A DNA stretch of 64,000 bases. It comes from Candidatus Peregrinibacteria bacterium. Its GTDB lineage: Bacteria; Patescibacteriota; Gracilibacteria; Peribacterales; Peribacteraceae. Position 1 is the stretch's first letter. Each line of letters begins with the position of its first letter. Below the pieces are notes generated by a model that had not been told where the DNA came from, ran no database searches, and saw nothing but the letters and a program-made list of their open reading frames with translations. The stretch is from assembly GCA_043814035.1 (NCBI GenBank), contig JBDRKJ010000007.1:128100-192099 (forward strand), in the 5' to 3' direction. The translations under genes and the position numbers were made by a program. Positions 7,723-56,619 of the stretch are shown one piece after another.

Positions 7723-10062
7723 CTAAAGCCTTCGCTTAAGCCAAAGTAGAGACACCCCCACGCTCGAAAGTACCCCCAAAACGCCCATTTCGGGTATGGA
7801 GGATTGCTGGCGGTCTTCGCCCGTCACCGTCAGAGAGTCGGGTAATTCGGTCTCCACGAAGGTCATGAGGAGGGAACCGGATACAGAGGAAGGAAAAGAA
7901 AGAGAAGAAATAGAGGATCGGGACGCCGAGACATAGCGAGTCCGTGAGAATGCGGGCGCTGCCGCGGCGACGGATTTCTTTGCGCTCGCGATGGATGAGA
8001 CTGGTAATGGCAGAGTTGTCTGACACGTATTGGGTAACCCGGGCGTGGGATCGGAGGTTCTCCATTCCCCGTTGCAAAAACTCAACGACGTTCCTGCTTT
8101 GAGTTTCGGAATCGTAACGTGATCGGACCATGAATTATCGGGCGCAATCAGCCACACGTCATCGCCTGTATCGTTGAGGGCGAGCTTCGTATCATCCCGC
8201 GAAAATATGCGATACGCGCCAGCTGCAATCGTTGTACTCGAAGGAATAATAAATGGCTTGCTCCCACCTCCGCTCCTGGCGGAGCTACGGTGGGCAAGAC
8301 CGCCTTCACGGAGGTCATCGAGTATCCAGCCAGCCAAAGAAATTTCGTGATCGGTCGAATTGAAAAGTTCGATCCACTCATCGCCGGTCATCATCACTTC
8401 ACTTAAAACAGCACCCGTCTCAACGAGAGCAGAGGCGGAAGACGAAAAAGAAGAAATAGAGGAAGTAAAAGAAATAGAGGAGGAAGAGGAGACAGAAGAA
8501 AAAGAGGAAAGAGAAGATGAAGAAGCAGAAGATTTCGAGGAGCTGGATTGTGGTTGTTCTTTCGGAAGCACGGTCACGTTGAGAGTGCTTACTGAAATGC
8601 CTCCGCAGAAGTCACGCACCGTCAGACGCACCGTGTAATCACCGGGGTCCGAGAATGTGTGTGACGGCGGATTGCAGGCACTGCTCACTGCATCATCGCC
8701 GTAGTCCCACGTGCATACGGCGGAAGCGAGGGAACCGGCTCCGGCAGCGGCTTGCAGGTTGATCGACACGTGCTCCTCGCCCACGACAAATGCGCTGCCA
8801 ACCGAAGCCGATCCGGCATCCTGAATGAGGATGCGCGGCGCAAGTGATGCGACAACGTTTGGTTGGCCTTCGCTGGGAACGCAGAACGCATGGAGCGCGT
8901 AAGGCGGATCTTTATCGCGACCGAAACTCACCTCTTCGGCTGTCATCGGATACTCCCACGCATCGATGAGTTGTGAACCGTTCATCAGACTCACGCGCTC
9001 GCCGTTGTTATCGAGCGGGAGACTTGTGACGGATTTGCGAAACGACCAGTACTCGCCCGGTGCCAGAAAAAATCCGGAGCCGGATTGCGGCAGGATCGTG
9101 TACACCGCGGAGGAGTTTCCATCATCGAGCGTCCAACCGGCGATGTTCACGGAAACGGCTCCCAGATTGGCGATCTCGATCCACTCTTCAGTATCCGCAC
9201 CGATGGGATTTGCGAGAACTTCGGTGATGAAGACGGAGGGGATAGAAGAAGAAATAGAGGATGAAGAGGAAAGAAAAGAAATAGAGGAGAGCGAGGATGC
9301 GGATGACACGCTGCTCACGAAAGAACCGGAACCGGAGGATGACTGCACGGAACCGAGCGATGACCCTGTGGAGGAAGAGGAGGAAACTGAAAATGCCGAG
9401 GAAGCCGAAGATGCCAAGGGGGGAGAAGAGTCACGCAAAAATCCCGGCGTGCCGAAGATGGGCGCACCTTCTTTGAATCCGAGTGACAGAGTTGCCGTCT
9501 GCCAGTTCTCGGCAATATTGCCCGGCACCGCAAGATCGATGCGCTCCATACTGGCTTTGGGTAAGCCAGAAACATTTGCGCCGGCGAAGGGGCTACCCAC
9601 GCCGTCATCCACTTCATCGCGGACCACACCGTCGGCATCATAAAGCCGCAGGAGCAACTTGGTATTCGGCAGGCTCATCGACGGCGTTGTGATCCACGGC
9701 TCTGATAAAAGCCGCGAAGACGCCGCCGGATAGTTGCTCACAACGCGTACGTCACCGGCCGGGAGCATCGCACCCGTTTGGAACGTGTGAATCACGGCTT
9801 CCTCACCCGTGCTCTTTGAGCTCGTGAGAGTCCAGCCACTCAAATCGCAATCGCCTACTCCTGTGCATACGATCTCGACCCACTCATCGGACGTAGATAC
9901 ATCCGATCCCATCCACATCACTTCACTGATCACTACCGAACCGGCCGCGGCCGCCTCATCCGCGAAGACCCTGTGTGCAGGAAGACCCGAACACACGCAG
10001 AGCAGCGCTCCTGCAGGGAGCAGGTACGCGAGAAGCCGATGCAGTACTGTGCAGGTTTTCAA
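7723..10062 (-). CDS. Secreted/anchored surface protein: three lamin-tail-domain (LTD)-like repeats, one PKD-like domain, Ser-rich linkers, C-terminal hydrophobic anchor
   Basis: N-terminal signal-like LLAYLLPAGALLCVCSG. LTD-type motifs occur three times (VISEVMW...DEWVEIV...LSGWTL; ITEVLANP...EEWIEIANLG...IAGWTLDD; LSEVMMTGDEWIELFN...LAGWILDD). The PKD-like stretch is WDYGDD...HTFSDPGDYTVRLTV. The tail is IPEMGVLGVLSSVGVSLLWLKRRL. The start codon is TTG, so the start is uncertain. Confidence 0.75.
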   Translation of the reverse strand: MKTCTVLHRLLAYLLPAGALLCVCSGLPAHRVFADEAAAAGSVVISEVMWMGSDVSTSDEWVEIVCTGVGDCDLSGWTLTSSKSTGEEAVIHTFQTGAMLPAGDVRVVSNYPAASSRLLSEPWITTPSMSLPNTKLLLRLYDADGVVRDEVDDGVGSPFAGANVSGLPKASMERIDLAVPGNIAENWQTATLSLGFKEGAPIFGTPGFLRDSSPPLASSASSAFSVSSSSSTGSSLGSVQSSSGSGSFVSSVSSASSLSSISFLSSSSSISSSIPSVFITEVLANPIGADTEEWIEIANLGAVSVNIAGWTLDDGNSSAVYTILPQSGSGFFLAPGEYWSFRKSVTSLPLDNNGERVSLMNGSQLIDAWEYPMTAEEVSFGRDKDPPYALHAFCVPSEGQPNVVASLAPRILIQDAGSASVGSAFVVGEEHVSINLQAAAGAGSLASAVCTWDYGDDAVSSACNPPSHTFSDPGDYTVRLTVRDFCGGISVSTLNVTVLPKEQPQSSSSKSSASSSSLSSFSSVSSSSSISFTSSISSFSSSASALVETGAVLSEVMMTGDEWIELFNSTDHEISLAGWILDDLREGGLAHRSSARSGGGSKPFIIPSSTTIAAGAYRIFSRDDTKLALNDTGDDVWLIAPDNSWSDHVTIPKLKAGTSLSFCNGEWRTSDPTPGLPNTCQTTLPLPVSSIASAKKSVAAAAPAFSRTRYVSASRSSISSLSFPSSVSGSLLMTFVETELPDSLTVTGEDRQQSSIPEMGVLGVLSSVGVSLLWLKRRL

Positions 10063-12353: not shown

Positions 12354-15300
12354 ATGGTCTCGAAACGCACAGTTATCCTTGGGGTATTTTCCTTAAGCGT
12401 CGCGGCAGCTTTTGTCGGAACGCTCTGGAACCTGCAGGGAAATACCTTCCAGGGGCAAGTCGTCTCAGGAACATCGCAGGTCATTGATGATGGCGATGCG
12501 GGATTTAGTACATCCGGTCAAGGATGGCAGCGCTTTCAGCACTCTCTGGGATACAGAGGAGACATCATGGCTCCGTCGAAGGTGACAGATTCCTCGCTCG
12601 CTGCCACATGGACATTCTCAAATATGGCGGCCGGGCAGTACAAGTTCTACGTCACCTTCAAGGCCTACAGCCTGCTCACGAATAAAGCACCCTACACCAT
12701 CAAAGATGGATCATCGACACTCGGATCGACGACAGTGAACCAGAAGACCGATCCCACGGGCAACTTGTACGATGGAAAAAACTGGTCATTGCTCGGCATG
12801 TACACAGTGAAAGGGCCGACGGTCTCGATCACACTCTCTCGCCCACAGGATCTCACGGTGAACGGCATGATTGCGGATAGCGCTCGTATCGAACGCGTTA
12901 CGGCTCCGGCAGAAACGTTTGGGTTGCTCCCTGCTGCAGGGCTAGCTGAAGGGCAAGGTGGTTGCCGTGCGGGATTCACGCTCGTTGAGGGATACAACTA
13001 TCCTTACATTACGTGTCTAGCTTTCTGCGGGGACGACATCTGCAATACCGCCGAATACTATCAGTACAGTGGATCAACTGCCTGCTGCAAGTGTGGACCC
13101 AGTCTGTGGTGCGCTTCTTCGTCTTCCCGCTCCTCTACACCGGGAGCGACATCTTCACTCTCCTCTACACCGGGTGCAGCATCTTCGCGTTACTCTACAC
13201 CCGGAGCGACATCTTCGCGTCCTGCACAGAGCTCGGCAATGAGTAAGCCATCGACTGGAGGCTCTTCTGCGTTCGCTTCTAGTTTGCCGGATGCTGAGGT
13301 TCTTCCGCCTAACCAGCTGCAGTATCCCGGTCAGCAATGCCCCCCTGGAACGATCCCCGATTGTCCCACTCCTAATTATTGCGAATGTAAGCCGTTCCCC
13401 TGCCCGCCTGGAACGATCCTCGATTGCAATCCTAGTGGTTGCGACTGTAGGCCGCTCTCCTGCCCGGATGGGTTTTACGTCGACCACAATACTGGTATCT
13501 GCATGCCCGTCTCAGTGTGCGGCGATGGCTACGTCGAACCGCAAGGGCGACCGATTGAGCTCTGCGAAACCGGCACGAACGAAGGATGTGCTCCGGGTCG
13601 CACGTGTCAGGGGTGTACCCGCTGCGGGCTCTGTGGCGACACCTTCATCGATCGCTCCGAGACCTGTGAGGCCGACTACTCCTGCGCGAGTGGAAGTGCT
13701 TGTCAGGATTGTCAGTGCACGACATCGACCACGCCCCTCACGGCGAACATGACTTCTGCACTCGATAGTGCTAGCCCCGGTTTCTCGACGTACACCTCTC
13801 CGTACAATACGACGGTCCTCTCGTGGACCCTCGCCATTCAACCACAGAGCATGTACGACGTGTACGTCAAACTGAAGCGGGCTTACAGCGATCCCTGTCC
13901 CATCCGTAGCTACTGGCGCGTCTACGACGGGAGCCGACAGGTGCACACGCTCACCATCAATTATGGGAATTACGTCTGCACGACATGGCCGGGAACCAAC
14001 GTGCAGGGGACACAGGAGGCGTGGGTGAACATCGGTAGTGTCGTGGCATCTTCCTCTTCCCTGCGCATCGAACATGCACCGCCTCCGCCACCGGAGGGGC
14101 AGCAGCCGGCAATTACTACTTTCCAGCCAACTGCCGTGCGCGTCGTGAAACAATTCAACATCGTCGATCCCGCTCCTCTTGGCGTCACGCTCATCGACAA
14201 CGGTGATCTGGGATTCCGTACCTTGGTAGGCACGTGGGAAGAACGTCAGTTCCCCATGCCCGATGCCTGGTCCATCGGTCCCGTGACGAATCCCCTCTTC
14301 GACGACGACATCGCCCTGCAATACATTAACAGGGGTGATCCTTCGCCAACTTCGAGCTGGAGCTTTACGGTCGCCCCTGGTAGCTACCGCGTACTGGTGA
14401 CGTTCGCCAAGCTCTCTCCAGTCAACTTCGTCAATAAGAACGCCATATACTCCGTGCGCAACGGCAACCAGGCCGGACCAGAGCTTGGCCGCGTGACAGT
14501 CGATCACTCCTATCCTCCCAATGGCCCGATGTACCGCTTCGTATCGTGGAAAGATCTGGGCACCTACACCGTCACCGGTAACCGCCTCTCGGTCGTGCTC
14601 ACGAATCCCTACGGTCTCAGTTCCGATGCCGTGCGCATCGAGAAGATCGGCGGCGCCAGTTCCTCGGCACAATCGTCCTATTGGAGCTCCGCTTCGTCAC
14701 AGGGTCTCACTTGTTCTTCGCTGCCCTGGTTGCAGTGTGCATCCGGATTCCAGTGTCTTGCACAGTGCATCAATGGTGACTGTGCTGGTGTTGATACCCT
14801 CGGCTGCCCGCCCGGGACGGTGTCTCAGCGTAATGGAACGTGCGGTAATGACCTTTGTCACAATGAGTGTGAGCGGTGCGTCCCTGTTGCCTCGTCTTCG
14901 CGCTCATCCGCCAGCTCTCAACAGTGGTTTGGGTGTTCGGGCAGTTTCAAATGCAATGTCGCATGGGCAAACAACCAGTGTGCTCGCCTCTCCATCGACT
15001 GCTCTCCCGGTACGCAACTTGTCTGTGACGCCCCCTGTGGTTCTGCCTCCTGTGGTGGAGAGTGCTGCAGGTGTGCGAGTGTTGCATCGTCGCGTTCCTC
15101 TGCCTCATCGGTCGTCGCCTGTGCGAACGAGGGCGAAGTGGTTTCCGAGGGGAACATGCGACCCTGCTGCGATAGCCTGAAATCGATTCCGTTCATACAG
15201 CCCGATGCGAGCAATCAATGTTTCAACATATCGCTCAACAGCATTTGCACGCGATGTGGCAACGGCCAGTGCGGAACAGGAGAGAACTTCTGTAATTGCA

Positions 15301-17612
15301 CCAACGACTGCCCGCGACCAGCTTCTTCACGTTCGTCTGCTGTCTCTTCGGCATCCTCAACTGCATGGAGGGTCTGCGATGCGAACCTTCTGTGCGAAGT
15401 ACAGTGGTACCAAAACCAGTGCAACGTATTACCAATCGACTGTATGCCCGGGGCCAATCTGGTGTGTGACGGTGGTGCATGCGGAAACAATCAATGTGCC
15501 GGTCGCTGCTGCAGATGCGTGGGTGGTACGTCTTCACGTTCCTCTACCTCATCGGCCGCCGCTGCCTGCGGCAACTATCGGCTCGATCCCGGCGAACAGT
15601 GTGACGGACCGAACCTTCCCTGCCAGCCCGGTCAGGTGTGTACGGCCGACTGTACGTGCGTCCCGCAACCTCCCAACCGCATTCAGTGGGAGACGGTTGG
15701 TGATTCCTACCTTGTAAGCACACTCAGTGATTACGCGATCTTCGGACACGGCTCGTACCTCTACATTGTTGGAGGCATGGGCTTCTGGGGTCCAACACGC
15801 GATGAACTGCGTTCATCTGATGGCCTCAGTTGGAGCAGGGTGGCCTCGCTACCCCAATCTCTCTCGAATACTGCCTATCTGCAATCCGATGCCGCTGCCC
15901 TCCTCGTTGGAGGACTGCTGAACGCCGATAGCACGGTGCATTGGGCCTTCGAGACCCCGAACCTCCTCACGGTAGGTTTCCAATCAAACCCGGATTATGG
16001 GCTCTCAAGTCCGCGCTACGACGGTGCGCTCCTGCGGGTGGGAGATCGCACGTACTTCTTAGGCGGTTATTCCAAATCCAGTCCGCTCGGTGGCTTCTTG
16101 TTGAGCTCTCTCTTAGGCTCGCTCGTGAGCCAGACGGCGATCTCGACTCCCTCAAAAGAAATCTACCTGCACGTCGGAACCCGCTGGTCACGCGTGCAGC
16201 CCGATCTGCCGTTCGCCGTGTCACAGGATGATGCCTTCACCATTGGTAATCGGCTCTTCATTCTCGATCGCTCCACTCCACGCAAGGTCTACATGTCGAC
16301 GACCGGTACGTCGTGGGCTCAGGTAGCAACCCTCCCGACAGAAACAGCATCGACGAAATTCCTGAAGCCTATTCAGCACAAGGGTGCCATCTGGTTCATC
16401 GCCAAATCTGGACCCCTTGCAGGCTCGGCTGTCACCACGACCAATGGACAACAGTGGATCGTAGCGGATGGAGTCTTCCCGTCGGACCTTAAAGAGTTCG
16501 AACCGGAGGCCGCTGTCTCGTTCAAAGATGAAATCTGGCTCTTGGGCTCTGTGCGTGACTATTACGTTGGCGGTAATTCCCGCAATGGCAAGGTGTTGCG
16601 CACAGGCGCTTCTGGAGGTCCGTTCTGTGGAGATGGCTTCGTGCTTTCGCCCGAACAGTGTGACGACGGCAATGCAACCCCCAGCGATGGGTGTTCCAAC
16701 TGCCAGATCGATAGTGGATGGATCTGCACAGGTTCACCGAGTCGTTGCACGATGATCATCGGCTCTTCCAGTTCGGCCCAGTCCTGTGCTCAGAACGGAG
16801 AAAGGGTCTACGTCGCATCACAGTTCGGCCCCACCACCTGCTGTAGCAAGAATGCTGGAATAAAACCCAACAGTTATCTTGCCGGGGAAATATGCGTTTC
16901 GACGACTGACGGCGCGAAGGGAACCTGTATCGACAACTGGTGGCAGACCTGCGGTGATGGGATATGTGGAGCAGATGAGGATCAGTGCAACTGTTCTGCA
17001 GATTGTCCTGCAGCCACATGCGGCAACGGCCTTTGTGAAGAAGGAGAGGCAAATTCCTGCCCGGCATGCGTGTACCAAAACCCGCCTTGTAACGCTCCCT
17101 GCCAGTCCGGCACCTGCCCCAATGATTGTCCCTCTGTCTGCGGTGACGGAAAGTGTGAGGAAAACGAGAACGCACAGAACTGTTTCCAGGATTGTTGCCC
17201 TGCCATGCTCGACTGTCCTGCTCCACCGCCGGGATGCGTATATGTGGATCCACGTGAGGATGGCAAAGGCTGCCCCATAAGTTGTGGCACGCTGAAGTGC
17301 GAAGATACCTGCGGCAACGGTCGCATCGACCTCGGCGAGGAATGTGATTCCTCGGCAGAATCTTTCGCGAACCAATGCGGACAGAGAGAAAAATGCGGCA
17401 AGGATTGTCGATGTAGCGGCGTCATTTGTCCTGTTTACTCGGCTCCATACTGCCCCAATGGCGTCTTGGTGCCGCAACTGGGACCCGACGAGAACGGCTG
17501 CAGTCTGCCTCCGGTTTGCTGCAATGGAGCAAAGAACTTGAAAGCACAGTGCTCTCTCACGCTCAAATGCGGAGGAGGTTCCTGTGTGATCTCTTCATGC
17601 ACGTGCAAATAA
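12354..17612 (+). CDS. Giant Cys-rich modular surface protein A (1752 aa)
   Basis: Modules, in order:
- N-terminal hydrophobic anchor/signal.
- Golvesin-C-like beta-sandwich units (12480-12899, 14187-14648, degenerate copy 13749-14075).
- Many Cys-rich modules separated by Ser-rich linkers.
- Kelch-like blade repeats (15681-16613: YLYIVGG, TYFLGGY, RLFILD, AIWFIA, EIWLLG).
- One CGDG...CDDGN...DGC...C Myxococcus-type Cys repeat (16626-16751).
- A C-terminal CP..GVLVPQLGPDENGC..PPVCC module (17427-17609). Confidence 0.85.
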   Translation: MVSKRTVILGVFSLSVAAAFVGTLWNLQGNTFQGQVVSGTSQVIDDGDAGFSTSGQGWQRFQHSLGYRGDIMAPSKVTDSSLAATWTFSNMAAGQYKFYVTFKAYSLLTNKAPYTIKDGSSTLGSTTVNQKTDPTGNLYDGKNWSLLGMYTVKGPTVSITLSRPQDLTVNGMIADSARIERVTAPAETFGLLPAAGLAEGQGGCRAGFTLVEGYNYPYITCLAFCGDDICNTAEYYQYSGSTACCKCGPSLWCASSSSRSSTPGATSSLSSTPGAASSRYSTPGATSSRPAQSSAMSKPSTGGSSAFASSLPDAEVLPPNQLQYPGQQCPPGTIPDCPTPNYCECKPFPCPPGTILDCNPSGCDCRPLSCPDGFYVDHNTGICMPVSVCGDGYVEPQGRPIELCETGTNEGCAPGRTCQGCTRCGLCGDTFIDRSETCEADYSCASGSACQDCQCTTSTTPLTANMTSALDSASPGFSTYTSPYNTTVLSWTLAIQPQSMYDVYVKLKRAYSDPCPIRSYWRVYDGSRQVHTLTINYGNYVCTTWPGTNVQGTQEAWVNIGSVVASSSSLRIEHAPPPPPEGQQPAITTFQPTAVRVVKQFNIVDPAPLGVTLIDNGDLGFRTLVGTWEERQFPMPDAWSIGPVTNPLFDDDIALQYINRGDPSPTSSWSFTVAPGSYRVLVTFAKLSPVNFVNKNAIYSVRNGNQAGPELGRVTVDHSYPPNGPMYRFVSWKDLGTYTVTGNRLSVVLTNPYGLSSDAVRIEKIGGASSSAQSSYWSSASSQGLTCSSLPWLQCASGFQCLAQCINGDCAGVDTLGCPPGTVSQRNGTCGNDLCHNECERCVPVASSSRSSASSQQWFGCSGSFKCNVAWANNQCARLSIDCSPGTQLVCDAPCGSASCGGECCRCASVASSRSSASSVVACANEGEVVSEGNMRPCCDSLKSIPFIQPDASNQCFNISLNSICTRCGNGQCGTGENFCNCTNDCPRPASSRSSAVSSASSTAWRVCDANLLCEVQWYQNQCNVLPIDCMPGANLVCDGGACGNNQCAGRCCRCVGGTSSRSSTSSAAAACGNYRLDPGEQCDGPNLPCQPGQVCTADCTCVPQPPNRIQWETVGDSYLVSTLSDYAIFGHGSYLYIVGGMGFWGPTRDELRSSDGLSWSRVASLPQSLSNTAYLQSDAAALLVGGLLNADSTVHWAFETPNLLTVGFQSNPDYGLSSPRYDGALLRVGDRTYFLGGYSKSSPLGGFLLSSLLGSLVSQTAISTPSKEIYLHVGTRWSRVQPDLPFAVSQDDAFTIGNRLFILDRSTPRKVYMSTTGTSWAQVATLPTETASTKFLKPIQHKGAIWFIAKSGPLAGSAVTTTNGQQWIVADGVFPSDLKEFEPEAAVSFKDEIWLLGSVRDYYVGGNSRNGKVLRTGASGGPFCGDGFVLSPEQCDDGNATPSDGCSNCQIDSGWICTGSPSRCTMIIGSSSSAQSCAQNGERVYVASQFGPTTCCSKNAGIKPNSYLAGEICVSTTDGAKGTCIDNWWQTCGDGICGADEDQCNCSADCPAATCGNGLCEEGEANSCPACVYQNPPCNAPCQSGTCPNDCPSVCGDGKCEENENAQNCFQDCCPAMLDCPAPPPGCVYVDPREDGKGCPISCGTLKCEDTCGNGRIDLGEECDSSAESFANQCGQREKCGKDCRCSGVICPVYSAPYCPNGVLVPQLGPDENGCSLPPVCCNGAKNLKAQCSLTLKCGGGSCVISSCTCK
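13131..13220 (+). repeat. 3 x 30-nt in-frame tandem repeat encoding an SSTPGA(T/A)SS linker
   Basis: Units at 13131-13160, 13161-13190 and 13191-13220 (tcctctacaccgggagcgacatcttc...). They differ at a few positions only. Confidence 0.9.
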
Positions 17613-17636
17613 TTCTTCTTTTTCCATAGTTCTCTG

Positions 17637-20600
17637 ATGCCCTCCCTCCACTTACGTTGGCCTTCCCTACTTCTCCCTCTCGGTCTCTTTGCGATCATCG
17701 CGGCTATCATTGTTACCGTCAGGTCACCCGCCTTGTGGACAGCGCAGACCGTGACGGCCTATTGCGGCAACAGTGTCGTGGATGCGGGCGAAACGTGCAT
17801 GGAGCCGGGTCTCGGAACCTGCTCTGAATCTCAGGAATGCATTCAGTGCAGATGCACAACGCCAAACAAGAGTTTCCGATGCGGCAACGTCTATGGTCGC
17901 ACGGGTGGTTGTACACCTACGCGCGCAGGAATGACATGCATGATTGAATGTCGTAATAACCGCCTCATCGCGGGTAAATGCGATGCCAATAAGAACTGCT
18001 ACGGCTACTGCGGTGACGGCAAAGTGGACCTCGGGGAACTGTGTGACACGGGCGATATACTCAACAGCGAAGCGTGCACAGAATTCTGTACTATCCGTTC
18101 AGGATGGACGTGCACAGGTTCGCCCTCACGATGCACGCTGACCCCGGCGGCCGCGTCATCGTCTGCCGCAGCAGCTTCTAGCGCATTGGCTAACCGCAAA
18201 GACATCGTACTCGATAACAACGACCTCGGTTTCATGTCGTACTCCGGTACCTGGTCGGTCAGCTCGGTCGGTTACAAGGGAGCACAACACGTTCATGCCA
18301 CCGGTCCAAGTGATTGGAATCGTCCTTTGGAATGGGGCGGCTGGTCTATCAATAGAGTGCCAGTAGGCAGTTACGGCATGTATGCTACGTGGGAACCAAG
18401 CTCCCAGTACTCCAAGAAAGTCACCCTCGAGATCGACCGCTCGAGAGGGCTCGTCTCAGTTCCGTCAGAAAACAACCGATGGACACGGGCAACCATCAAT
18501 CAGCAAAACAGCCCAACTGCCAGCTGGACATGCAATGGCAGAAAGTGGAGGTACTTCGGAAACCTGACCATCACCAAAGATTACAACTACGTCGGTGTCT
18601 TCATGTACACGGAGAATGGCGCACCCAGGAACTCACGGTTCGCCATGGATGGATTCATCCTCTCGCCGTCCGATCGCAAGCCCGTATGCGCTGTCCCACA
18701 ATCCTCTTCCAGTTCTCAAGTCTCCTCTTCGAGCTCCCAAAGCTCGTCTTCAAGTTCCCAAAGCTCCTCTTCCAGTGTCAGCAGCGATCCCTGTGAAGGA
18801 GGAAGGTGTGCGTTGGAATGCCCATGCGGTTCGATCGATTGCGGCTGTATCTGCTTGCCATGCAGCAGTAGTTCCTCTTCCAGTTCCCAAAGCTCCTTGT
18901 TCTGTGCCACTACCGGTAAACTGGTGTACGTCTCCCCATCAATGGGTCCCACGACCTGCTGCAGTCAGTTTGATAGCATTAAGCGACTCAGCTGGTTTGC
19001 GGGAAACCGATGTTACTCGCCCATCAATTCGGTCATCGGTACATGCGTAAGAGGCTGGGATGAGATCTGTGGCAACGGTTCCTGTGACACTAACGATGAG
19101 GATCAGTGCACCTGCCCCGAGGATTGCCATGGTAGTGCTCCCTCATGTGGCGATGGACAGGTGGTCTCGCCTGAACAATGTGACGATGGCAACCAGTGGA
19201 CCGATGACGGTTGTTCGCACCCCGACTGTCAGGTTGAATCTGGCTGGATCTGCTCGGGGTCTCCGAGCCAGTGCACGAGAATCGCGAGTTCCTCCAGCTC
19301 TGCCCGCCCCGTCTGTGGTAACGGCATTCGCGAAGGATCGGAGGAATGTGACAACGGCTCTGCCAACGGGCTGAATTTCAGTTGCGGAAGAGACTGTATG
19401 ATGTGCATCGCCCCGCCCCCCTGCCCGACAGGCACACACGGCTCAGGAGGCGGCATCGATGCCCGCGGGTGCGCAACCGGAGGCCAGTGCATTCCCAATG
19501 AGGCCGTTTGCGGAAATGGAATCCGCGAAGGATCAGAACAGTGCGAAGTAGGCATAACTTGCCCGCCCATCAACTGTTTCACTACTCCTTGCCCTCAGCA
19601 ACAGTGTGACTTCGCAACCTGTTCCTGCAGCTTCACCTGCCCCGATCCCACGCCCCCCATTTGCGCGGGCGGTGTGCTCTTCCCACAGCTCGGCACAGAT
19701 GAGAATGGGTGTAAACGTCCGCCGGTCTGTTGCGAGGGAGCCGCAAGCGGAGGCGAGTGCACCACAAACATGAACTGTACGAACGGCAAGTGCGTGGTGG
19801 AGTCATGTACGTGTGGCTATCTGTGCCCCGATCCCACGCCCCCCATTTGCGCGGGCGGTGTGCTCTTCCCACAACTTGGTCTGGATGAGAACGGGTGTAA
19901 ACGTCCGCCGGTCTGTTGCGAGGGAGCCGCAAGCGGAGGCGAGTGCACAATGAATATGAATTGCGCGGGCGGACGATGCATAGTGGAATCCTGTACGTGT
20001 GGACACGGCGTCGCTTCGGCCTCCTCTCAACCGTTGCAAGTATCCAGCATGTCGTCAGTAAGTGGTCAGCTGTATCCTGACATCATCTATACTGGTAATG
20101 TCATTCCCCAACCGAAACTCAAGCTCAGCATTGAGGGCCCCACGTACGGCCCCGTCGACACGCCCTTCACGCTCACTGCGATAGTCGAGAATACTGGCGA
20201 CCTGTTCGACAAATCGACGGAGATGACACTCTCGTGGATTATGAGTAAGCCTGAAATTCTCTCATTCCCGCCGACCTGCACAAGAAGCTACCCGTCCGGT
20301 GGCATTTCGGGGTACCCGGTCTATTTCACCTGTCCGGTGCCTGCCATTACGCCGTCGACACCGGGGAAGAAGGTCTCCTTTCCCTTCACCTTCCAGCTCG
20401 ACCGCAGCAGATTTACCTCTGCCATTGCCAAGGCTTGCGTGGACCCGACCTCGATGATCTTCGAGCTGAAGCCCATCATCATCCGACAGAGAACGCCCGG
20501 TGGAAACATCATCAATCACCAGATGGGCGGTCAAAAAGTACCGTTGCTCTACACTCATCGATGCGATTCAAGCTCGAGCAGCAGAGTGCTGGCTGTGTGC

Positions 20601-21053
20601 GGCAACGGCATTATGGAACAGCCGGAATGGTGCGACGATGGAAATACCGCCACAGGGGACGGATGCTACAGGTGCCTCACGCAGGGAGGGTTCTCGTGCA
20701 CCAAGGTGTATGGCCAACGGTCCATCTGCACGCGCACGCAATGCGGCAACGGCGTGGTCGACTCGGGAGAGGTGTGTGATGATGGCAACGTGGTCGGAAA
20801 CGATGGTTGCGGCGGGGACTGCAAAGTGGAGTATGGATTCTCTTGCGTCATCTACAAAGACCAGCCCTCTCGCTGTAGCAGGGGAACGTGCGGCAATGGC
20901 CGATGGGATCTGTACGAAGACTGCGACGACGGTAACAAGAGCAGTAGTGACGGCTGCAGTGCGGCCTGCAAGTATGAAGCGGGTTGGATCTGCACTGGCT
21001 ACCCATCAAGATGCTCGCGCAACGGTATATCCCCACCCAAGACCACGCATTGA
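17637..21053 (+). CDS. Giant Cys-rich modular surface protein B (1138 aa), mosaic paralog of protein A
   Basis: Starts 24 nt after protein A. Modules:
- N-terminal hydrophobic anchor.
- Myxococcus-type Cys repeats (18006-18134, 19146-19274, three at 20598-21011).
- One golvesin-C-like unit (18201-18668).
- Poly-Ser linkers.
- A Cys module shared with A (18900-19127).
- A duplicated 62-aa module (19638-20009).
- A CARDB-like sandwich (20079-20561). Confidence 0.85.
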   Translation: MPSLHLRWPSLLLPLGLFAIIAAIIVTVRSPALWTAQTVTAYCGNSVVDAGETCMEPGLGTCSESQECIQCRCTTPNKSFRCGNVYGRTGGCTPTRAGMTCMIECRNNRLIAGKCDANKNCYGYCGDGKVDLGELCDTGDILNSEACTEFCTIRSGWTCTGSPSRCTLTPAAASSSAAAASSALANRKDIVLDNNDLGFMSYSGTWSVSSVGYKGAQHVHATGPSDWNRPLEWGGWSINRVPVGSYGMYATWEPSSQYSKKVTLEIDRSRGLVSVPSENNRWTRATINQQNSPTASWTCNGRKWRYFGNLTITKDYNYVGVFMYTENGAPRNSRFAMDGFILSPSDRKPVCAVPQSSSSSQVSSSSSQSSSSSSQSSSSSVSSDPCEGGRCALECPCGSIDCGCICLPCSSSSSSSSQSSLFCATTGKLVYVSPSMGPTTCCSQFDSIKRLSWFAGNRCYSPINSVIGTCVRGWDEICGNGSCDTNDEDQCTCPEDCHGSAPSCGDGQVVSPEQCDDGNQWTDDGCSHPDCQVESGWICSGSPSQCTRIASSSSSARPVCGNGIREGSEECDNGSANGLNFSCGRDCMMCIAPPPCPTGTHGSGGGIDARGCATGGQCIPNEAVCGNGIREGSEQCEVGITCPPINCFTTPCPQQQCDFATCSCSFTCPDPTPPICAGGVLFPQLGTDENGCKRPPVCCEGAASGGECTTNMNCTNGKCVVESCTCGYLCPDPTPPICAGGVLFPQLGLDENGCKRPPVCCEGAASGGECTMNMNCAGGRCIVESCTCGHGVASASSQPLQVSSMSSVSGQLYPDIIYTGNVIPQPKLKLSIEGPTYGPVDTPFTLTAIVENTGDLFDKSTEMTLSWIMSKPEILSFPPTCTRSYPSGGISGYPVYFTCPVPAITPSTPGKKVSFPFTFQLDRSRFTSAIAKACVDPTSMIFELKPIIIRQRTPGGNIINHQMGGQKVPLLYTHRCDSSSSSRVLAVCGNGIMEQPEWCDDGNTATGDGCYRCLTQGGFSCTKVYGQRSICTRTQCGNGVVDSGEVCDDGNVVGNDGCGGDCKVEYGFSCVIYKDQPSRCSRGTCGNGRWDLYEDCDDGNKSSSDGCSAACKYEAGWICTGYPSRCSRNGISPPKTTH
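19638..20009 (+). repeat. 186-bp in-frame tandem duplication (2 copies) inside protein B
   Basis: Copies at 19638-19823 and 19824-20009 both encode CPDPTPPICAGGVLFPQLG.DENGCKRPPVCCEGAASGGEC.... The first ~125 nt of each copy are almost identical at the nucleotide level. Confidence 0.9.
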
Positions 21054-22019
21054 TCACTCGTGGAGGACGTAGGTCGCCCCCTTGCGGGCGGCCAGTTTCT
21101 CCTGCTCCAATTGCCTGAGTATTTCTGAAAGCCACCCCCTGTGTGCTGGGGACCAGTCGGAGCAGGTCTTCCGTCCAATGGAGGATACGAACAGGCCATC
21201 CGTCGCGTCGCGGAGTACTTCGATGATTTTGCCACGTGTAATGCGATTCGCAACGAAGCGACCGGCGATGACACGACCCGGTTCAGCATTCGGAGCTCGA
21301 AGCTCGGTCTTGGGAAAATTTCTGGGCGTGGCTTTCATAAGACTTTTTTTAGAAAGCGGACATGTATCCCATTGGGGACTTCTTTTCGTCTGGACTAAAG
21401 AACCAAAGTCCATGAGTGCAGCATGCCAATTACGGGCATCGTGATCCTGGTAACCATCCATCGCCACCTGCAAGACCTCTTCTGCAACCTTTAGAAGATA
21501 TTTGTCATCTCTCTTCCACGTTCCGTCTGAGGATTCCGGGCCGACGAATGCGCGATGCAAGATACGACGGATGTTTGTATCGATGCACGGAGTCGGCAGG
21601 TTGAAAGCAAAATTCCGGATGGCGGCGGCCGTGTAGTGACCCAACCCCTTAATGCTCTGTAGTTCTTCCATACTTAAAGGAAAGACACTCCCGTGTTGTT
21701 CCACAATCGTACGGGCGGCATCACGCAGACGGAGTACACGGCTGTTGTAACCCATCCCGCGCCAGGCGAGGATCACCTCGCGATTGGAGACTGCCGCAAG
21801 GTCGTGAAGGCGAGGAAACTGTTTCAAAAATCGCTCGTAAATGATGACGACGCGCTCCACCTGCGTCTGCTGGAGCATGACCTCAGAAACAAGGATGTGA
21901 TAGGCACGCTCGGTGTCATCGTCAATGGTCAAATCACGCCATGGGAGCGACCGTTTCTGCCGTGCGTACCACTGCCAGATCGCCTCAACAAAGGCCAATA
22001 TCCGCTTATTTTGCTTCAT
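21054..22019 (-). CDS. mutY: MutY-family HhH-GPD adenine DNA glycosylase-like protein lacking the Fe-S cluster cysteines
   Basis: LVSEVMLQQTQV, GMGYNSR, HhH LQSIKGLGHYTAAAI, and the catalytic Asp in CIDTNIRRIL. The start is placed at the internal ATG (22019, MKQNKR). The longer ORF to 22148 adds a non-conserved basic extension. The cluster loop reads SLVQTKRSPQWDTCPLSKKS, with one Cys instead of four. Confidence 0.8.
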   Translation of the reverse strand: MKQNKRILAFVEAIWQWYARQKRSLPWRDLTIDDDTERAYHILVSEVMLQQTQVERVVIIYERFLKQFPRLHDLAAVSNREVILAWRGMGYNSRVLRLRDAARTIVEQHGSVFPLSMEELQSIKGLGHYTAAAIRNFAFNLPTPCIDTNIRRILHRAFVGPESSDGTWKRDDKYLLKVAEEVLQVAMDGYQDHDARNWHAALMDFGSLVQTKRSPQWDTCPLSKKSLMKATPRNFPKTELRAPNAEPGRVIAGRFVANRITRGKIIEVLRDATDGLFVSSIGRKTCSDWSPAHRGWLSEILRQLEQEKLAARKGATYVLHE

Positions 22020-22194
22020 TGTGTGCAGTGTAATCGACGGAGCAACGTGAGGACCATGCCCGGCCGCGAACGAAATCTCTTTCCCTCCCCGATTTTGGCC
22101 GTAAATCCGTTGACTGCCCCTATCAATCTCCCTAGACTTTCCGGGCAAAAAGAAGCTAAAGTGCTTCTGATATTCTCCTTTTCCCTCCTTTGAT

Positions 22195-23387: not shown

Positions 23388-23417
23388 CGTAGCTGGGGTT
23401 CATGAACCCCAGCTACG
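23388..23417 (+). promoter_or_regulatory. Perfect 13-bp hairpin between tuf and rpsJ (attenuator/processing-site candidate)
   Basis: CGTAGCTGGGGTT-CATG-AACCCCAGCTACG, 12 nt after the tuf stop, with no U-tract. The ATG of the longest rpsJ ORF (23402) sits in the loop. Confidence 0.5.
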
Positions 23418-23452
23418 ACGAGAATTATCTTGCTCTTTCCCCCCTCCTCTCC

Positions 23453-23962
23453 ATGGCCCCTCAGAAGAAGGCACCAGCGAAGAAATCCCCTCCTGCAAAG
23501 GATACGAAGAAAAAAGCTCCTGTGCAGAAGAAGACTCGTGCCTCCCAGCCTTCGCTGAAGCTTCGACCGGCAAGCAAGAGGGAGCCTGTGGTTGCCGTGC
23601 AAGAGAAGAAACACACTCACTCTCCTACTCCCAAGAAAGCAGCCGATGCAAAGGCTGTCCCTTCGATTCGTATTCGCTTGAGCGCGTTCGATCACACTGT
23701 TTTGGATGAGGCAGCAGCAAAGATTATCGATACCGCAGAGCGCTCGGGTGCTGTGATTCACGGGCCGATTCCCCTGCCCACCCGCATCCGCAAGTTCACC
23801 GTGAATCGCTCAACCTTCGTGCACAAGAACTCGCGCGATCAGTTCGAGATGCGTACGCACCGTCGCCTAATCGACCTTAAAGAAACCACGTTCAAAACCA
23901 TGGAGAGCCTGCAGAGCTTGAGCCTACCCTCCGGCGTGGATATTGAGATTAAAATGCGGTGA
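23453..23962 (+). CDS. rpsJ: Ribosomal protein uS10 with a ~70-aa Lys/Pro/Ala-rich N-terminal extension
   Basis: The core [14 protein letters not shown]...GPIPLPT...[26 protein letters not shown] is canonical S10. The start is placed at ATG 23453 ([11 protein letters not shown]), which is preceded by a CT-rich leader. Alternative start at 23402. Confidence 0.88.
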
Positions 23963-26259: not shown

Positions 26260-27069
26260 ATGCGCAAGTTCTCCGCAGCAATCATCGCCGTACTTGCCGC
26301 CATCCTTCCACAGGTGGTCCTGGCAGCCTCGAACCCGAATCCGGGCATCATTCAAACGTGCGTCGTGCCGGGAATTTCCTGTCTTGGCGGAGACCTAGCC
26401 TCGTACATCGACTCGACCATACTCGAAGGGGCACGCATCGCCTTCACGGGGCTACTCTTCGGCGCCATTCTGTACTACGGCATTCGACTGCTCCTTGCCC
26501 CCGAGAGTGAGAATACTCTGACAGAAACCTCAAAGGCATTTGAGTATGCAATCTTCGGTGTCATCCTCATGGTTGGTGCGAACCTCATCGCTTCCAGTTT
26601 TGTGACAGGAGGCGTAGCCGAACCAGCGGGATTGACCACCGTACTCGGTACAATCGTCACCTTCATTAAAGCGATCATCGCCACAGCCCTACTTGTGAAT
26701 ATCAGCATTCAGGGATTCAACATGATCACCTCGACCGACGAAGGTGGCTTCACCAAAGCGCGAACACGCTTTCTTCATGGTGTGTACGGCGCAGCCATTG
26801 TGCTTCTGGCCTCACCGATCGTGAACATGGTGTACGGCAAGAACCCTTCAGCCGGAGAGATCGAATTAAAGGGAATTGCCAACTACATCATTACCATCTT
26901 CGGCCTACTCGCCGTCGTGGCACTGATCATAAGCGGTATCATGCTGATTGTTTCTGTTGATGAGAGTTTCAAAGACCGAGCAAAGAAGCTCGTTACCGGA
27001 AGCCTCATTGCTCTCATCGTCGTCATCTCGGCCGGTGCACTCGTCAATTTCTTCATCATTCGACCATGA
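26260..27069 (+). CDS. Membrane protein made of three VirB2/T4SS-pilin-like helical hairpin repeats (copy 1)
   Basis: Signal peptide (AVLAAILPQVVLAAS), then three units of hydrophobic helix, short polar loop (S.DE....KA+) and hydrophobic helix. An example unit is LLAVVALIISGIMLIVSVDESFKDRAKKLVTGSLIALIVVISAGALVNFFI. Confidence 0.6.
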   Translation: MRKFSAAIIAVLAAILPQVVLAASNPNPGIIQTCVVPGISCLGGDLASYIDSTILEGARIAFTGLLFGAILYYGIRLLLAPESENTLTETSKAFEYAIFGVILMVGANLIASSFVTGGVAEPAGLTTVLGTIVTFIKAIIATALLVNISIQGFNMITSTDEGGFTKARTRFLHGVYGAAIVLLASPIVNMVYGKNPSAGEIELKGIANYIITIFGLLAVVALIISGIMLIVSVDESFKDRAKKLVTGSLIALIVVISAGALVNFFIIRP

Positions 27070-27872
27070 CATATCGCTCTGTCATACGCTGGCTGGGAGC
27101 ATGTGCGCTGTGGACCATCCCCATGGTGGCTTACGGCTTCTTCGAAGACACCATTCAGCACGTGGGCGGCGCACTCTCGAGTGGGATTGGTGGTGCGGAA
27201 TTCGGCAGTATCTACCAGGTCATCACCGAATCTCTGGTGGGAATAGCATCAATTCTCGGTGTTGTAATGATCGTGCGAACAGGACTCACCCTCACGATCA
27301 GTCAGGATGAGGGACAATTCGCCAAGGCGAAGAAAACAATCATTGCTGTTTCTGCAGCACTCATCATCATCAATCTTGCTCCGCGGATCGCCGAGGCGTT
27401 CATTGCCTACCAGAGCGGCGGACCCGGTATTCTGGATACAGAAATAAGAGGCCTTCTCAGCTTCTTTGAAACGGTTGCTGCGATCACGGCAATCATCTTC
27501 TTGATTGTGAGCGGTATTCGCGCGGTGATCAGCTACGGAGGAGAAGACGGTGGAACACACATGAAACGTGCGATTATCAGTATTGGAGCAGGTATCCTCA
27601 TTATTGCCGCCAAACTGCTCATCGTGAACGCCGTTGTCATTGAGCGCACGCCGGGCGGCATCCTCGCGATCATCTCCACATTCATGACACTACTACTCGG
27701 CTTCGTCGCGTTCGTTGCAACGATCGTACTTATTTGGGCCGGCCTGCTGATGATCGTGAATCTCGGCAAGGATGAACAGTACACGCGTGCCAAGAATCTC
27801 GTCATCCGCGTGGGCATCGGCCTCATTGTCATCCTCGTAAGCCTCGCATTGGTGCAATTTGTTATTGTATAG
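27066..27872 (+). CDS. Membrane protein made of three VirB2/T4SS-pilin-like helical hairpin repeats (copy 2, paralog)
   Basis: ATGA start/stop overlap with copy 1. Same three-unit architecture (ILGVVMIVRTGLTLTISQDEGQFAKAKKTIIAVSAALIIINLA; IIFLIVSGIRAVISYGGEDGGTHMKRAIISIGAGILIIAA; IVLIWAGLLMIVNLGKDEQYTRAKNLVIRVGIGLIVILVS). Confidence 0.6.
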   Translation: MTYRSVIRWLGACALWTIPMVAYGFFEDTIQHVGGALSSGIGGAEFGSIYQVITESLVGIASILGVVMIVRTGLTLTISQDEGQFAKAKKTIIAVSAALIIINLAPRIAEAFIAYQSGGPGILDTEIRGLLSFFETVAAITAIIFLIVSGIRAVISYGGEDGGTHMKRAIISIGAGILIIAAKLLIVNAVVIERTPGGILAIISTFMTLLLGFVAFVATIVLIWAGLLMIVNLGKDEQYTRAKNLVIRVGIGLIVILVSLALVQFVIV

Positions 27873-55109: not shown

Positions 55110-55149
55110 CAGTCCTACGCTCTTCACCCTATCCCCTACCCCCTTACTC

Positions 55150-55917
55150 ATGACCTCTCTTCAGTGGAAAGAGCCCCACGGCTCCAAGGCCCCACCAACG
55201 CAACGCACTCAGTCGAATTTCTGGTTCGGTGTCTCGATGGTGTTCATTGGCGTTATCGTCGGTTTCTCGGCAGGACGTTTCGCCGGTGGAGGACTCACCT
55301 TCGCTAACGCCGTTCCCGCTCCGGCGGCTCAAGCCCCGACGGCTCCCGCTCCAGCCCCTGCGCCGGATCCCGAGACTGCGATCAATGTCGTCCCTGTCGA
55401 CCTTGAAAAGGATCATATTCGTGGCAGTACGACGGCCGACATTGCCGTGATCGAGTACTCCGACTTCGAGTGTCCGTTCTGTCAGCGTGTGCATCCGACC
55501 ATGAAGCAGCTGCTCGAACAGAATACAGGCAAGATCATGTGGATCTTCCGCCACTATCCTCTGAGCTTTCATCCGAAGGCGGAACCAGCAGCAATCGCCT
55601 CTGAATGCGTGAATGAGCTGGGAGGCAACACGGCATTCTGGAAATTTACGGACGCCGTCTTCGATCAGCAGGCAACCTTTGATCCCGCCACTATCGCGAA
55701 ACAGATCGGTATTAATGCCGATGCTTTTGATCGCTGTGTCAGCAGTGGCAAGTATCAGTCGATCGTCCAGGAGCAGCTCTCACAGGGCTCCGCTTCGGGC
55801 ATCCAGGGCACTCCGGGCACCATCGTTCTGAATCTGAAGACGCAAGAGAACCGCATCGTCTCTGGCGCCCAACCTCTCGCAAACTTCCAAGCTGCAATCG
55901 ATGCACTCCTCCAATAA
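55150..55917 (+). CDS. Membrane-anchored DsbA-family thiol:disulfide oxidoreductase
   Basis: TM anchor, Ala/Pro linker, then the thioredoxin-fold active site EYSDFECPFCQR. Confidence 0.8.
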   Translation: MTSLQWKEPHGSKAPPTQRTQSNFWFGVSMVFIGVIVGFSAGRFAGGGLTFANAVPAPAAQAPTAPAPAPAPDPETAINVVPVDLEKDHIRGSTTADIAVIEYSDFECPFCQRVHPTMKQLLEQNTGKIMWIFRHYPLSFHPKAEPAAIASECVNELGGNTAFWKFTDAVFDQQATFDPATIAKQIGINADAFDRCVSSGKYQSIVQEQLSQGSASGIQGTPGTIVLNLKTQENRIVSGAQPLANFQAAIDALLQ

Positions 55918-55951
55918 TTCCTCTACCCCTCACTCTACCCCTAACCCTATT

Positions 55952-56176
55952 ATGCGTACTCTCGTCCAAATCCCCGGCATACACTGCCAGTTCTGCGCCG
56001 TCCTCATCAGGGACGTCAGTCAGGAATTTCCCTCCATACAGAACATCGACGTCAATGTGGACTTAAAAACAGTCGACCTGCGCCATGACGGCCATTTCGA
56101 TCTCACATCATGGACAGGAGCTGTCGAAGAACTGAATACCTCCTATACAGTCAAACCGCTTTCACAAACACTGTGA
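55952..56176 (+). CDS. Small HMA-like (CopZ-like) protein with a variant HCQFC motif
   Basis: VQIPGIHCQFCAVLIRDV sits at the position of the MxCxxC loop. About 74 aa from ATG 55952. Confidence 0.5.
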   Translation: MRTLVQIPGIHCQFCAVLIRDVSQEFPSIQNIDVNVDLKTVDLRHDGHFDLTSWTGAVEELNTSYTVKPLSQTL

Positions 56177-56224
56177 ATGAGATTCCCTCCCGCCCTGCCG
56201 CCGCGGAAACGGTGGGGCGGGATT

Positions 56225-56248
56225 TACCTACCCCCTAGGTTGTGGTAC
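56225..56248. promoter_or_regulatory. CsoR-type operator candidate 1 (upstream of csoR)
   Basis: TACCTACCCCCTAGGTTGTGGTAC. It shares the frame TACCTA..CCCTAGGT...GGTA with site 2. Confidence 0.45.
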
Positions 56249-56274
56249 CGTGTGGGCATCTTCCTCTCTCACCT

Positions 56275-56547
56275 ATGACCCCACAGAAGCAAAAAGCGCT
56301 CATCGGATACAAGAAAGCACAGAGCCTTCTCAAGAAAATCATCACAATGGTCGAAGAAGACCGATACTGCATCGATATCATGCAGCAGAACCTGGCTGCC
56401 ATCGGCCTGCTCAAGTCCGCGCACCAGCTCCTCTTTGAAGGGCACTTGAACAGCTGTTTCAAGAGTGCGCTTGATACGAACAGTCCTTCAAAAAAGCAGA
56501 AGATGATCGACGAGATCCTGACCGTGACAAAGATGGCGAATAAGTGA
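56275..56547 (+). CDS. csoR: CsoR/RcnR-family copper-sensing repressor
   Basis: LLKKIITMVEEDRYCIDIMQQ...AHQLLFEGHLNSC shows the C-H-C ligand pattern of CsoR. Confidence 0.8.
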   Translation: MTPQKQKALIGYKKAQSLLKKIITMVEEDRYCIDIMQQNLAAIGLLKSAHQLLFEGHLNSCFKSALDTNSPSKKQKMIDEILTVTKMANK

Positions 56548-56595
56548 GCAGGGTTGATTTGCACTGAATTTTTCTTCCTTGACGCCGAGTACCTA

Positions 56596-56619
56596 TACCT
56601 ATACCCTAGGTATGGGTAT
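56596..56619. promoter_or_regulatory. CsoR-type operator candidate 2 (overlapping the copA promoter)
   Basis: TACCTATACCCTAGGTATGGGTAT. The inverted arms ATACCTATACC / GGTATGGGTAT match 10 of 11 with a 3-nt spacer. TTGACG at 56579-56584 lies upstream. The site ends 22 nt before the copA ATG. Confidence 0.5.

Follow-up and report, generated by a model that had tools for sequence, protein, structure and literature searches.

Two adjacent cysteine-rich genes, here designated A and B, were analysed in the genome of an uncultured groundwater bacterium of the Peribacteria/Peregrinibacteria, which belong to the Candidate Phyla Radiation (CPR). The DNA is a stretch of 64 kb, referred to below as the window, covering positions 128,100-192,099 of the forward strand of contig JBDRKJ010000007.1 (Candidatus Peregrinibacteria bacterium, assembly GCA_043814035.1). 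An earlier note on this DNA, made by a model from the sequence alone, had described two open reading frames (ORFs) of 1752 and 1138 amino acids, separated by 24 nucleotides, each beginning with a hydrophobic anchor and both being mosaics of common modules. The ORFs and their 24-nt spacing are exactly as given there, and the features of the pair are listed below with residue numbers of the encoded proteins.

12354..17612, + strand: ORF A, predicted modular surface protein of 1752 residues with 128 Cys (7.3%)
12354..12443, + strand: N-terminal signal-anchor or signal peptide of A (MVSKRTVILGVFSLSVAAAFVGTLW), its only hydrophobic segment, kept in all orthologues and without lipobox
12459..12914, + strand: beta-sandwich resembling Golvesin_C and carbohydrate-binding modules (CBMs) of families 6, 35 and 36, copy 1 (A 36-187, no Cys), assigned with Pfam, AlphaFold2 and Foldseek
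12915..13139, + strand: 8-Cys module (A 188-262), present among orthologues only in L010, the closest relative, and in L009/P0002
13140..13733, + strand: Ser/Thr/Pro-rich linker (A 263-460) with a 30-bp repeat in 3.4 copies, a 60-bp Pro/Cys repeat in 2.1 copies and a CGDG-type segment with 12 Cys
13734..14078, + strand: beta-rich unit betaX (A 461-575), conserved in five orthologues
14169..14663, + strand: Golvesin_C-type sandwich, copy 2 (A 606-770, no Cys), aligning with copy 1 across orthologues
14727..15518, + strand: three W modules with 9-10 Cys (A 792-842, 858-907 and 1005-1055), with ASSRSS-type linkers between them
within 14727..15518, + strand: weaker variant of the 75-residue module (A 923-986)
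15681..16613, + strand: Kelch-type beta-propeller region (A 1110-1420, no Cys)
16614..16751, + strand: 6-Cys repeat of the DUF4215 / TIGR02232 type (A 1421-1466)
16782..17006, + strand: 75-residue module with 10 Cys (A 1477-1551), uncatalogued and widespread
17007..17426, + strand: mini-modules of the types CG[DN]GxC...E...C..DC and CGNG..E.CD (A 1552-1691, 24 Cys)
17427..17609, + strand: 60-residue module with 10 Cys (A 1692-1752), at the extreme C-terminus
17637..21053, + strand: ORF B, predicted modular surface protein of 1138 residues with 102 Cys (9.0%)
17637..17750, + strand: N-terminal signal-anchor of B (SLLLPLGLFAIIAAIIVTV), predicted from the hydrophobicity scan
18006..18137, + strand: DUF4215 unit (B 124-167)
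18192..18686, + strand: divergent Golvesin_C-type sandwich (B 186-350), assigned with hhalign
18900..19277, + strand: 75-residue module with 10 Cys (B 422-497), followed by a DUF4215 unit (B 498-547)
19638..20009, + strand: tandem pair of the 60-residue module (B 668-791), a 186-bp unit in two copies with 87% nucleotide identity
20079..20561, + strand: all-beta unit betaY (B 815-975), a generic Ig-like sandwich at best
20598..21017, + strand: three tandem DUF4215 / TIGR02232 units (B 988-1127)
21072..21093, + strand: terminator-like GC-rich hairpin (consensus match only), just past the stop codon of B and within the 3' end of a convergent HhH-GPD gene

Topology and module composition of the two proteins

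A Kyte-Doolittle scan bears out the anchor proposed for each protein, with a single hydrophobic stretch at residues ~5-28 of both A and B and none in the rest of either chain; all complete orthologues of A and B likewise have a lone N-terminal hydrophobic segment. Within their first 40 residues neither A nor B has a lipobox ([LVI][ASTVI][GAS]C), and a reading of the two as lipoproteins was rejected on this ground. A reading as sortase substrates was also rejected, since there is no LPXTG motif and no C-terminal hydrophobic segment. Neither the anchor of A nor its golvesin copy 1 contains Cys, and the first such residue comes only after position 187. Because only 24 nt separate the genes and a terminator-like hairpin follows B, the layout is operon-like, and A and B are probably co-transcribed. 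The stop codon of B (21051-21053) directly abuts that of the convergent HhH-GPD gene (21054..22148, - strand) with zero intergenic space, and the hairpin at 21072-21093 is the sole strong terminator-like one at this end.

The mosaic relationship of the two proteins is supported by significant phmmer scores between their modules. The 75-residue module of A (1477-1551) matches that of B (422-497) with 54-56 bits, the 60-residue module (A 1692-1752) matches both tandem copies in B (668-726 and 730-788) with 50-53 bits, and the DUF4215 unit of A (1425-1466) matches five units of B with 21-51 bits. At a larger scale, A 1431-1751 and B 381-726 are 35% identical by blastp (E 1e-52). Further copies of any of the modules were not found elsewhere in the window. 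The number of Cys per module is even, mostly 6, 8 or 10, which fits self-contained disulfide-bonded mini-domains; the golvesin domains of A and its Kelch region contain none.

Among the Cys-free domains, golvesin copy 1 is the best characterised. The earlier note had proposed golvesin-C/Xly-type carbohydrate-binding sandwiches for units of ~140 residues, and A 43-181 indeed passes the gathering cut-off of Pfam Golvesin_C (PF25275, 31.6 bits) with 57.8 bits. An AlphaFold2 model of this copy, built from a 31-sequence alignment, has a mean predicted local distance difference test score (pLDDT) of 91.8 and a predicted TM-score (pTM) of 0.88. Its best Foldseek match in the PDB is a Paenibacillus xanthan lyase (6f2p; E 3.3e-8, TMq 0.76, root mean square deviation 2.7 A), followed by CBM6 (2cdp), CBM35 (2w3j) and CBM36 (7ay3) structures. 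The corresponding InterPro class, CBM6-CBM35-CBM36_like_2, has been tied to the lectins Cbeg4/5 and to xanthan lyase (PMC9166713), and distant carriers of Golvesin_C include subtilisin-type proteases. Copy 1 begins ~10 residues past the anchor of A and, with 66-97% identity among orthologues, is the best conserved part of this protein. Copy 2 matches copy 1 with 36 bits (phmmer); neither copy 2, with 19.7 bits, nor the copy in B, with 15.1 bits, reaches the Pfam cut-off on its own. The B unit taken alone is weak, with 9-15 bits in phmmer and Pfam searches, and judged by profile-profile comparison it is homologous to the golvesin domain of A, its orthologue profile matching the A profile in hhalign with 95.8% probability (E 7.7e-9).

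A fourth golvesin unit, a degenerate copy placed by the earlier note at 13749-14075 (A 466-574), could not be substantiated. This unit, now termed betaX, reaches 0.2-1.7 bits against golvesin in phmmer and 6.9% in hhalign (E 0.005, in register), and the best PDB match of its profile, the CBM35 structure 2vzp, is not significant (E 0.45). The CARDB-like sandwich (PF07705) claimed for B, now betaY, found no support either: nothing in Pfam or NCBIfam matches it at E<=1, and its profile has no significant match among PDB sequences. With the betaY region as query, a word-index search yielded a single fragment, too little for a deep alignment. AlphaFold2 modelling of B 660-985 from five sequences gave a pLDDT of 55.7 with an all-beta betaY, and Foldseek matched this low-confidence model to YcnI, cohesin, CLIPPER and MG domains at E ~2e-4, all of them generic Ig-like sandwiches.

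For the region of A that had been described as Kelch-like, the assignment stands at the superfamily level and comes from the orthologues. A profile of the region from seven orthologues matches the PDB Kelch domains 5yy8/6n3h at E 1e-4; the Kelch-type Pfam family NANM is matched by 7/7 orthologues (best 8.5e-8) and Kelch_1 by 3/7 (1.3e-5). The window copy itself lies under the Pfam cut-offs, with 16.3 bits for NANM (cut-off 45), 13.5 for Kelch_2 and 11.7 for Kelch_1.

Of the Cys-rich modules, the Myxococcus-type DUF4215 units recognised earlier in both proteins exceed curated cut-offs: DUF4215 reaches 39.6 bits in A and 56.5 in B (cut-off 27), and TIGR02232 reaches 40 and 142.2 bits (cut-off 20.8), with one unit above the cut-offs in A and four to five in B, each with 6 Cys. 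The W module of A had been noticed as a duplication; the pair is confirmed (A 858-907 against A 1005-1055, 36 bits), but a weaker third copy, A 792-842 with 11 bits, had been missed.

The 75- and 60-residue modules have no match in Pfam, NCBIfam or PDB sequences. Both had been regarded as private to A and B, which proved incorrect. A HMMER search with A 1470-1752 covered 1.84 billion representatives and gave 264 proteins at E<=1e-3 (77 of them at E<=1e-10), and 145 representatives were listed. Among the matches listed, the 75-residue module occurs in at least 53 other proteins, each standing for a protein cluster, with 77 copies in total, 1-4 per protein, and a median of 8% Cys. These carriers also bear PG_binding_1, Kre9_KNH, Kazal, DUF333, FG-GAP, Big_7, DUF11 or DUF4215 domains, and those with a named source come from Peribacteraceae, from 'Patescibacteria group bacterium' and from metagenome-assembled genomes (MAGs) labelled 'archaeon'. 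The consensus is.CA..G..VY....FGPT.CCSKNAGIKP.....C....DGS.GTCV..WW.TCGDG.C...ED.CNC..DC; the archaeon-labelled protein P0100 matches the profile with 99.7% probability and 55% identity, with 10/10 Cys conserved. Carriers noted besides A and B are P0100, P0125 and P0137; those labelled 'archaeon' include MFA5125779.1 (on a 375-kb contig) and MFH1358785.1, at ~55% identity. Its presence at ~55% identity in archaeon-labelled MAGs suggests either transfer between domains of life or mislabelled MAGs. The 60-residue module was found in at least 15 other proteins among the matches listed. In 12 of 15 carriers it ends 0-5 residues from the C-terminus, as a single copy or as the last of a tandem array, and it closes 7/7 A orthologues; in B of the window it is internal and tandem. 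A terminal role, as a tip or a cap, is possible.

The heavy load of Cys had been connected by the earlier note with a gene encoding a candidate oxidant of these modules:

55150..55917, + strand: membrane-anchored, DsbA/BdbD-like thiol-disulfide oxidoreductase with a CPFC motif

Such a protein is indeed encoded, but since the gene lies 34 kb away, in a copper/DsbD_2 cluster, its link to A and B is at the level of the genome only; a functional link by proximity was rejected. The gene is flanked by one encoding a fusion of DsbD_2, cupredoxin and HMA domains (53709-55109) and by one for an HMA-bearing P-type ATPase (56641-58998), and the region 53709-58998 resembles a copper-handling or thiol-redox cluster. 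Taken together, the single N-terminal hydrophobic segment, the even number of Cys per module and the membrane-anchored DsbA-like CPFC protein in the genome support a predicted extracytoplasmic location of A and B.

Conservation of the locus and mode of evolution

The A-B pair occurs at the same site in seven related, independent assemblies from different sampling sites, in the conserved order RNase Y - A - B - convergent HhH-GPD (MutY-like) glycosylase - EF-Tu - S10. Among species-representative genomes, orthologues of A turned up in the Candidatus Peregrinibacteria MAG CG1_02_54_53 and in a MAG of an uncultured member of Candidatus Peribacteria, and an index of 5.8 billion proteins contains only five orthologue clusters for A and two for B. 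An exact look-up of B in a contig index gave no match. Compared with the relatives, EF-Tu is 94-99%, RNase Y 87-97% and RNase III 86-90% identical; for A and B the figure is 45-82% wherever an alignment is possible, and long stretches of both are unalignable.

Orthologues of A range from 942 to 2494 residues and keep a backbone of anchor, Golvesin_C, betaX, Golvesin_C, W and 75-residue modules, Kelch region, DUF4215, 75-residue module and 60-residue module. Around this backbone the copy numbers vary (W 0-3, 75-residue module 2-4, DUF4215 1-2), and there are large lineage-specific inserts. B orthologues are far more variable, with 0-2 copies of betaY, which is duplicated in P0013, and 0-6 DUF4215 units; two of them share little or nothing with B of the window, and one carries FG-GAP repeats. 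In the closest relative, L010, the shared parts are 80-93% identical, and A residues ~275-922 (~650 residues) are absent. The junction falls in Ser-rich linkers, and the sequence ASSRSSxSS is found six times in A, at the borders between modules; the A gene of L010 has no run of N. The shuffling of modules inferred earlier is thus visible as gain and loss of whole modules between orthologues at one and the same locus. Within 6550-6959 of L010, the gene for B contains a scaffold gap of 100 N, located in the tandem 60-residue repeat, and its frame changes near 6959; this reflects either an assembly problem at the repeat or a pseudogene.

The sole nucleotide match between A and B is 66% over 164 nt, which indicates that the modules common to both are old duplicates, and recent gene conversion between A and B was rejected for the same reason. 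Only the 186-bp tandem duplication within B is recent. Rates of nonsynonymous (dN) and synonymous (dS) substitution were estimated by the Nei-Gojobori method for the window against L010 only. The dN/dS ratios are 0.11-0.42 in A and B and 0.09-0.28 in the flanks, so that the retained modules are under purifying selection, and positive selection on whole segments was rejected. In the same comparison dS is uneven, being 0.19 for A 1-274, 0.05-0.21 for the flanks, 0.63 for A 1043-1565 and 0.79 for B 1-409, which suggests recombination with divergent imported alleles. The family had been called rapidly evolving; this holds for architecture and recombination but not for substitution. The genes flanking the pair are 87-99% identical.

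Proposed role, alternative explanations and neighbouring genes

Large Cys-rich extracellular proteins have been reported in Candidatus Peribacter riflensis by Anantharaman et al. (2016, PeerJ 4:e1607; PMC4736985), who proposed attachment for them and noted strain variation. For A and B, attachment to glycans or proteins on the surface of another cell or of a polymer is the preferred reading, to which we give a probability of about 0.6. Both proteins would be Sec-exported by their single N-terminal hydrophobic segment and would stay tethered by it or, if it is cleaved, by the adjacent CBM-like domain. The Cys modules (DUF4215, 75-residue, 60-residue, W and CGNG mini-modules) would be oxidised outside the membrane and locked by internal disulfides. 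The independently folding units would then project as a chain of disulfide-locked spacers, Ser-rich linkers and Cys-free binding-type domains, the putative binding domains being the Golvesin_C/CBM6-35-like domain in both proteins, the Kelch-type propeller in A and the Ig-like sandwich in B. Recognition would probably fall to the variable distal part, which in A ends in the 60-residue module, and the conserved portion next to the membrane would form the base; its CBM-like domain may attach to the wall of the cell itself. Diversification of the locus would proceed through whole modules being gained, lost or duplicated at the repeated linkers and through recombination with divergent alleles, rather than by accelerated amino-acid substitution.

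Several points weigh against attachment to a partner or against steps of this scheme. Family scans of A and B found no catalytic domain and no known adhesin-tip domain. Golvesin copy 1, lying so near the anchor, might bind polymers of the cell's own wall instead of a partner, and the N-terminal segment fits a cleavable signal peptide as well as a signal-anchor. The models of the 60-residue module and of betaY are of low confidence. As regards diversification, the dS mosaic comes from one pairwise comparison made with a simple estimator, and the segment missing from L010 may have been collapsed in assembly at the repeated linkers. In addition, the lifestyle of Peribacteria has been inferred to be semi-independent at most (PMC4736985).

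A wider proposal is more doubtful than attachment itself. The 75-residue, 60-residue and W modules may represent undescribed disulfide-rich families that serve ultrasmall prokaryotes of groundwater as a kit of cassettes for their surface proteins. Under this proposal the sharing of the 75-residue module with archaeon-labelled MAGs would reflect exchange between domains of life, the 60-residue module would be the distal tip, because it is almost always at the extreme C-terminus, and the specificity for partners would shift by linker-mediated gain and loss of cassettes and by import of divergent alleles.

As an alternative to attachment, A and B could build a scaffold of the cell's own envelope, an S-layer-like structure or a wall matrix in which peptidoglycan or amino-sugar polymers of the same cell are bound by the CBM-like domains and the Cys modules provide rigidity, with no partner cell involved. 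This is considered unlikely. It would agree with the position of golvesin copy 1 directly after the anchor and its high conservation, with the purifying selection seen in dN/dS and with the PG_binding_1 domain in other carriers of the 75-residue module; the 2016 paper, moreover, stresses a heavy investment in amino-sugar polymers and suggests that Cys may make for rigidity (PMC4736985). However, a purely structural role leaves the turnover of modules amid conserved flanks unexplained, the B orthologues of some relatives share almost no modules with B of the window, and separate S-layer genes have been reported for the lineage (PMC4736985).

Less probable still is a nutritional role, in which polysaccharides or detritus from the environment would be captured at the cell surface by the CBM-like and propeller domains and made available for uptake or for enzymes encoded at other loci. 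The fold matches to CBM6/35/36 and to a module of xanthan lyase would suit such a function, as would the subtilisin-type proteases among distant Golvesin_C carriers and the genes for a glycan phosphorylase and a phosphoglucomutase in the window. Against this, no hydrolase, lyase or protease domain was found in A or B, and the flanking genes encode RNase Y, a MutY-like protein and EF-Tu, with no linked transporter or degradative genes. There is only a slight chance that phages drive the variation, with A and B as phage receptors or decoys and module turnover as escape from adsorption; architecture that varies while the modules stay under purifying selection, and a dS mosaic suggestive of allele exchange, would fit this, but such pressure is compatible with a role in attachment and not exclusive of it. 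That the long ORFs are assembly chimeras of repeated modules, as the repeats in A and B and the scaffold gap and frameshift in the B gene of L010 might suggest, is hardly credible, given collinear A backbones in the seven assemblies, a pair of 2236 and 1030 residues at the same site of the curated complete genome of Candidatus P. riflensis, and repeats in the window that are at most 87-91% identical in nucleotides and hence can be assembled unambiguously.

Other genes near the pair include a further probable surface protein of 779 residues (7723-10062, - strand) with three Lamin Tail Domains (LTD) and a PKD domain, which lies upstream of and divergent from RNase Y and is syntenic in L003 and L005. 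Next to it, an ORF of 1868 residues (2069-7675, - strand) has no Pfam match and 0.2% Cys, and is 52-65% identical to its counterparts at the same position in L003 and L005. In L003 inserted ParE/PhdYeFM toxin-antitoxin genes (3760-4873), which the window lacks, separate the LTD/PKD gene from the large ORF that is poor in Cys. On the other side, the ORF of ribosomal protein S10 (23402-23962, + strand) encodes 186 residues with the S10 domain at 90-184 only, compared with 164-169 residues in relatives, which seems to reflect a lineage-specific N-terminal extension or an overcalled start codon. Two adjacent proteins of ~269 residues with T4SS_pilin domains (E 1e-11 to 1e-14) are encoded at 26260-27872 (+ strand), and the same gene occurs downstream in L001.

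Comparison with known systems

To our knowledge, the means by which CPR bacteria recognise and hold their partners are largely uncharacterised outside the type IV pili of Saccharibacteria. The locus is syntenic and alignable, and in it the conserved base (anchor, CBM-like domain, Kelch propeller) is separable from distal cassettes that vary, which makes it a practical place for testing binding and specificity.

Each of the recognised parts has counterparts elsewhere. The PF25275 domain of Paenibacillus/Bacillus xanthan lyase and of the Bacteroides lectins Cbeg4/5 is the same kind of jelly-roll sandwich as predicted for A copy 1, whereas here it sits in non-enzymatic, Cys-rich proteins bearing an anchor. 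The 6-Cys repeat, with one copy in A and five in B, is that of the Myxococcus Cys-rich repeat proteins ('fibro-slime' and DUF4215 proteins of Myxococcota), and elsewhere it is found in secreted adhesive or matrix proteins, in pappalysin and in a diatom adhesive-trail protein. The best non-orthologous matches of B are Myxococcota proteins of the DUF4215 type, covering just ~12-13% of B; these proteins lack the golvesin, Kelch, 75-residue, 60-residue and W architecture of A and B. Fibrillar adhesins resemble A and B in their long repetitive surface design, in binding-type domains and in strain-level variation of repeat number, and betaY has a weak structural match to a CLIPPER domain from such an adhesin. 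They differ in being held by a C-terminal LPXTG or outer-membrane anchor, in contrast to the N-terminal hydrophobic anchor of A and B, and in having stalks of tandem Ig-like repeats rather than heterogeneous disulfide-rich mini-modules; no catalogued adhesive tip was found in A and B.

The closest known system is that of Candidatus P. riflensis, for which this protein class, including counterparts of A and B, was already described in 2016. A and B share the traits of that class: more than 1000 residues, ~5-11% Cys, an N-terminal export signal, weak similarity to Myxococcus repeats and a Peribacteria genome. The 2016 paper mentioned that the proteins weakly resemble Myxococcus Cys-rich repeats and pappalysin, and that the genome encodes one disulfide-formation protein (PMC4736985). 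Its Table S4 lists RIFOXYC2_FULL_PER-ii_58_32_229 (2236 residues, kelch hint) and _228 (1030 residues, pappalysin-2 hint), and its Table S2 gives the order rny - 229 - 228 - mutY - tuf - S10 (PMC4736985). As this order from rny to S10 matches that of the window, and the orthologue P0003 (2236 residues) has the length of _229, genes _229/_228 are the orthologous pair of A/B. The two pairs agree in lineage, site, size class and Cys content (6.3-6.4% in P. riflensis, 7.3-9.0% here) and share weak kelch and pappalysin/Myxococcus-repeat hints. They differ in module counts, the window proteins being 42-47% identical to P0003 in alignable parts; _229/_228 are annotated as lipoproteins ('putative lipoprotein' for _229), while A and B have no lipobox. 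The 2016 paper contains no module map, no CBM-like golvesin identity, no uncatalogued Cys modules and no recombination mosaic. What is new here is therefore detail rather than concept, namely the module map, the uncatalogued Cys modules, the C-terminal placement of the 60-residue module and the dS mosaic; the map adds at least two Cys-rich families that are well conserved and have no entry in Pfam, NCBIfam or PDB, one of which occurs in bacterial as well as archaeon-labelled MAGs.

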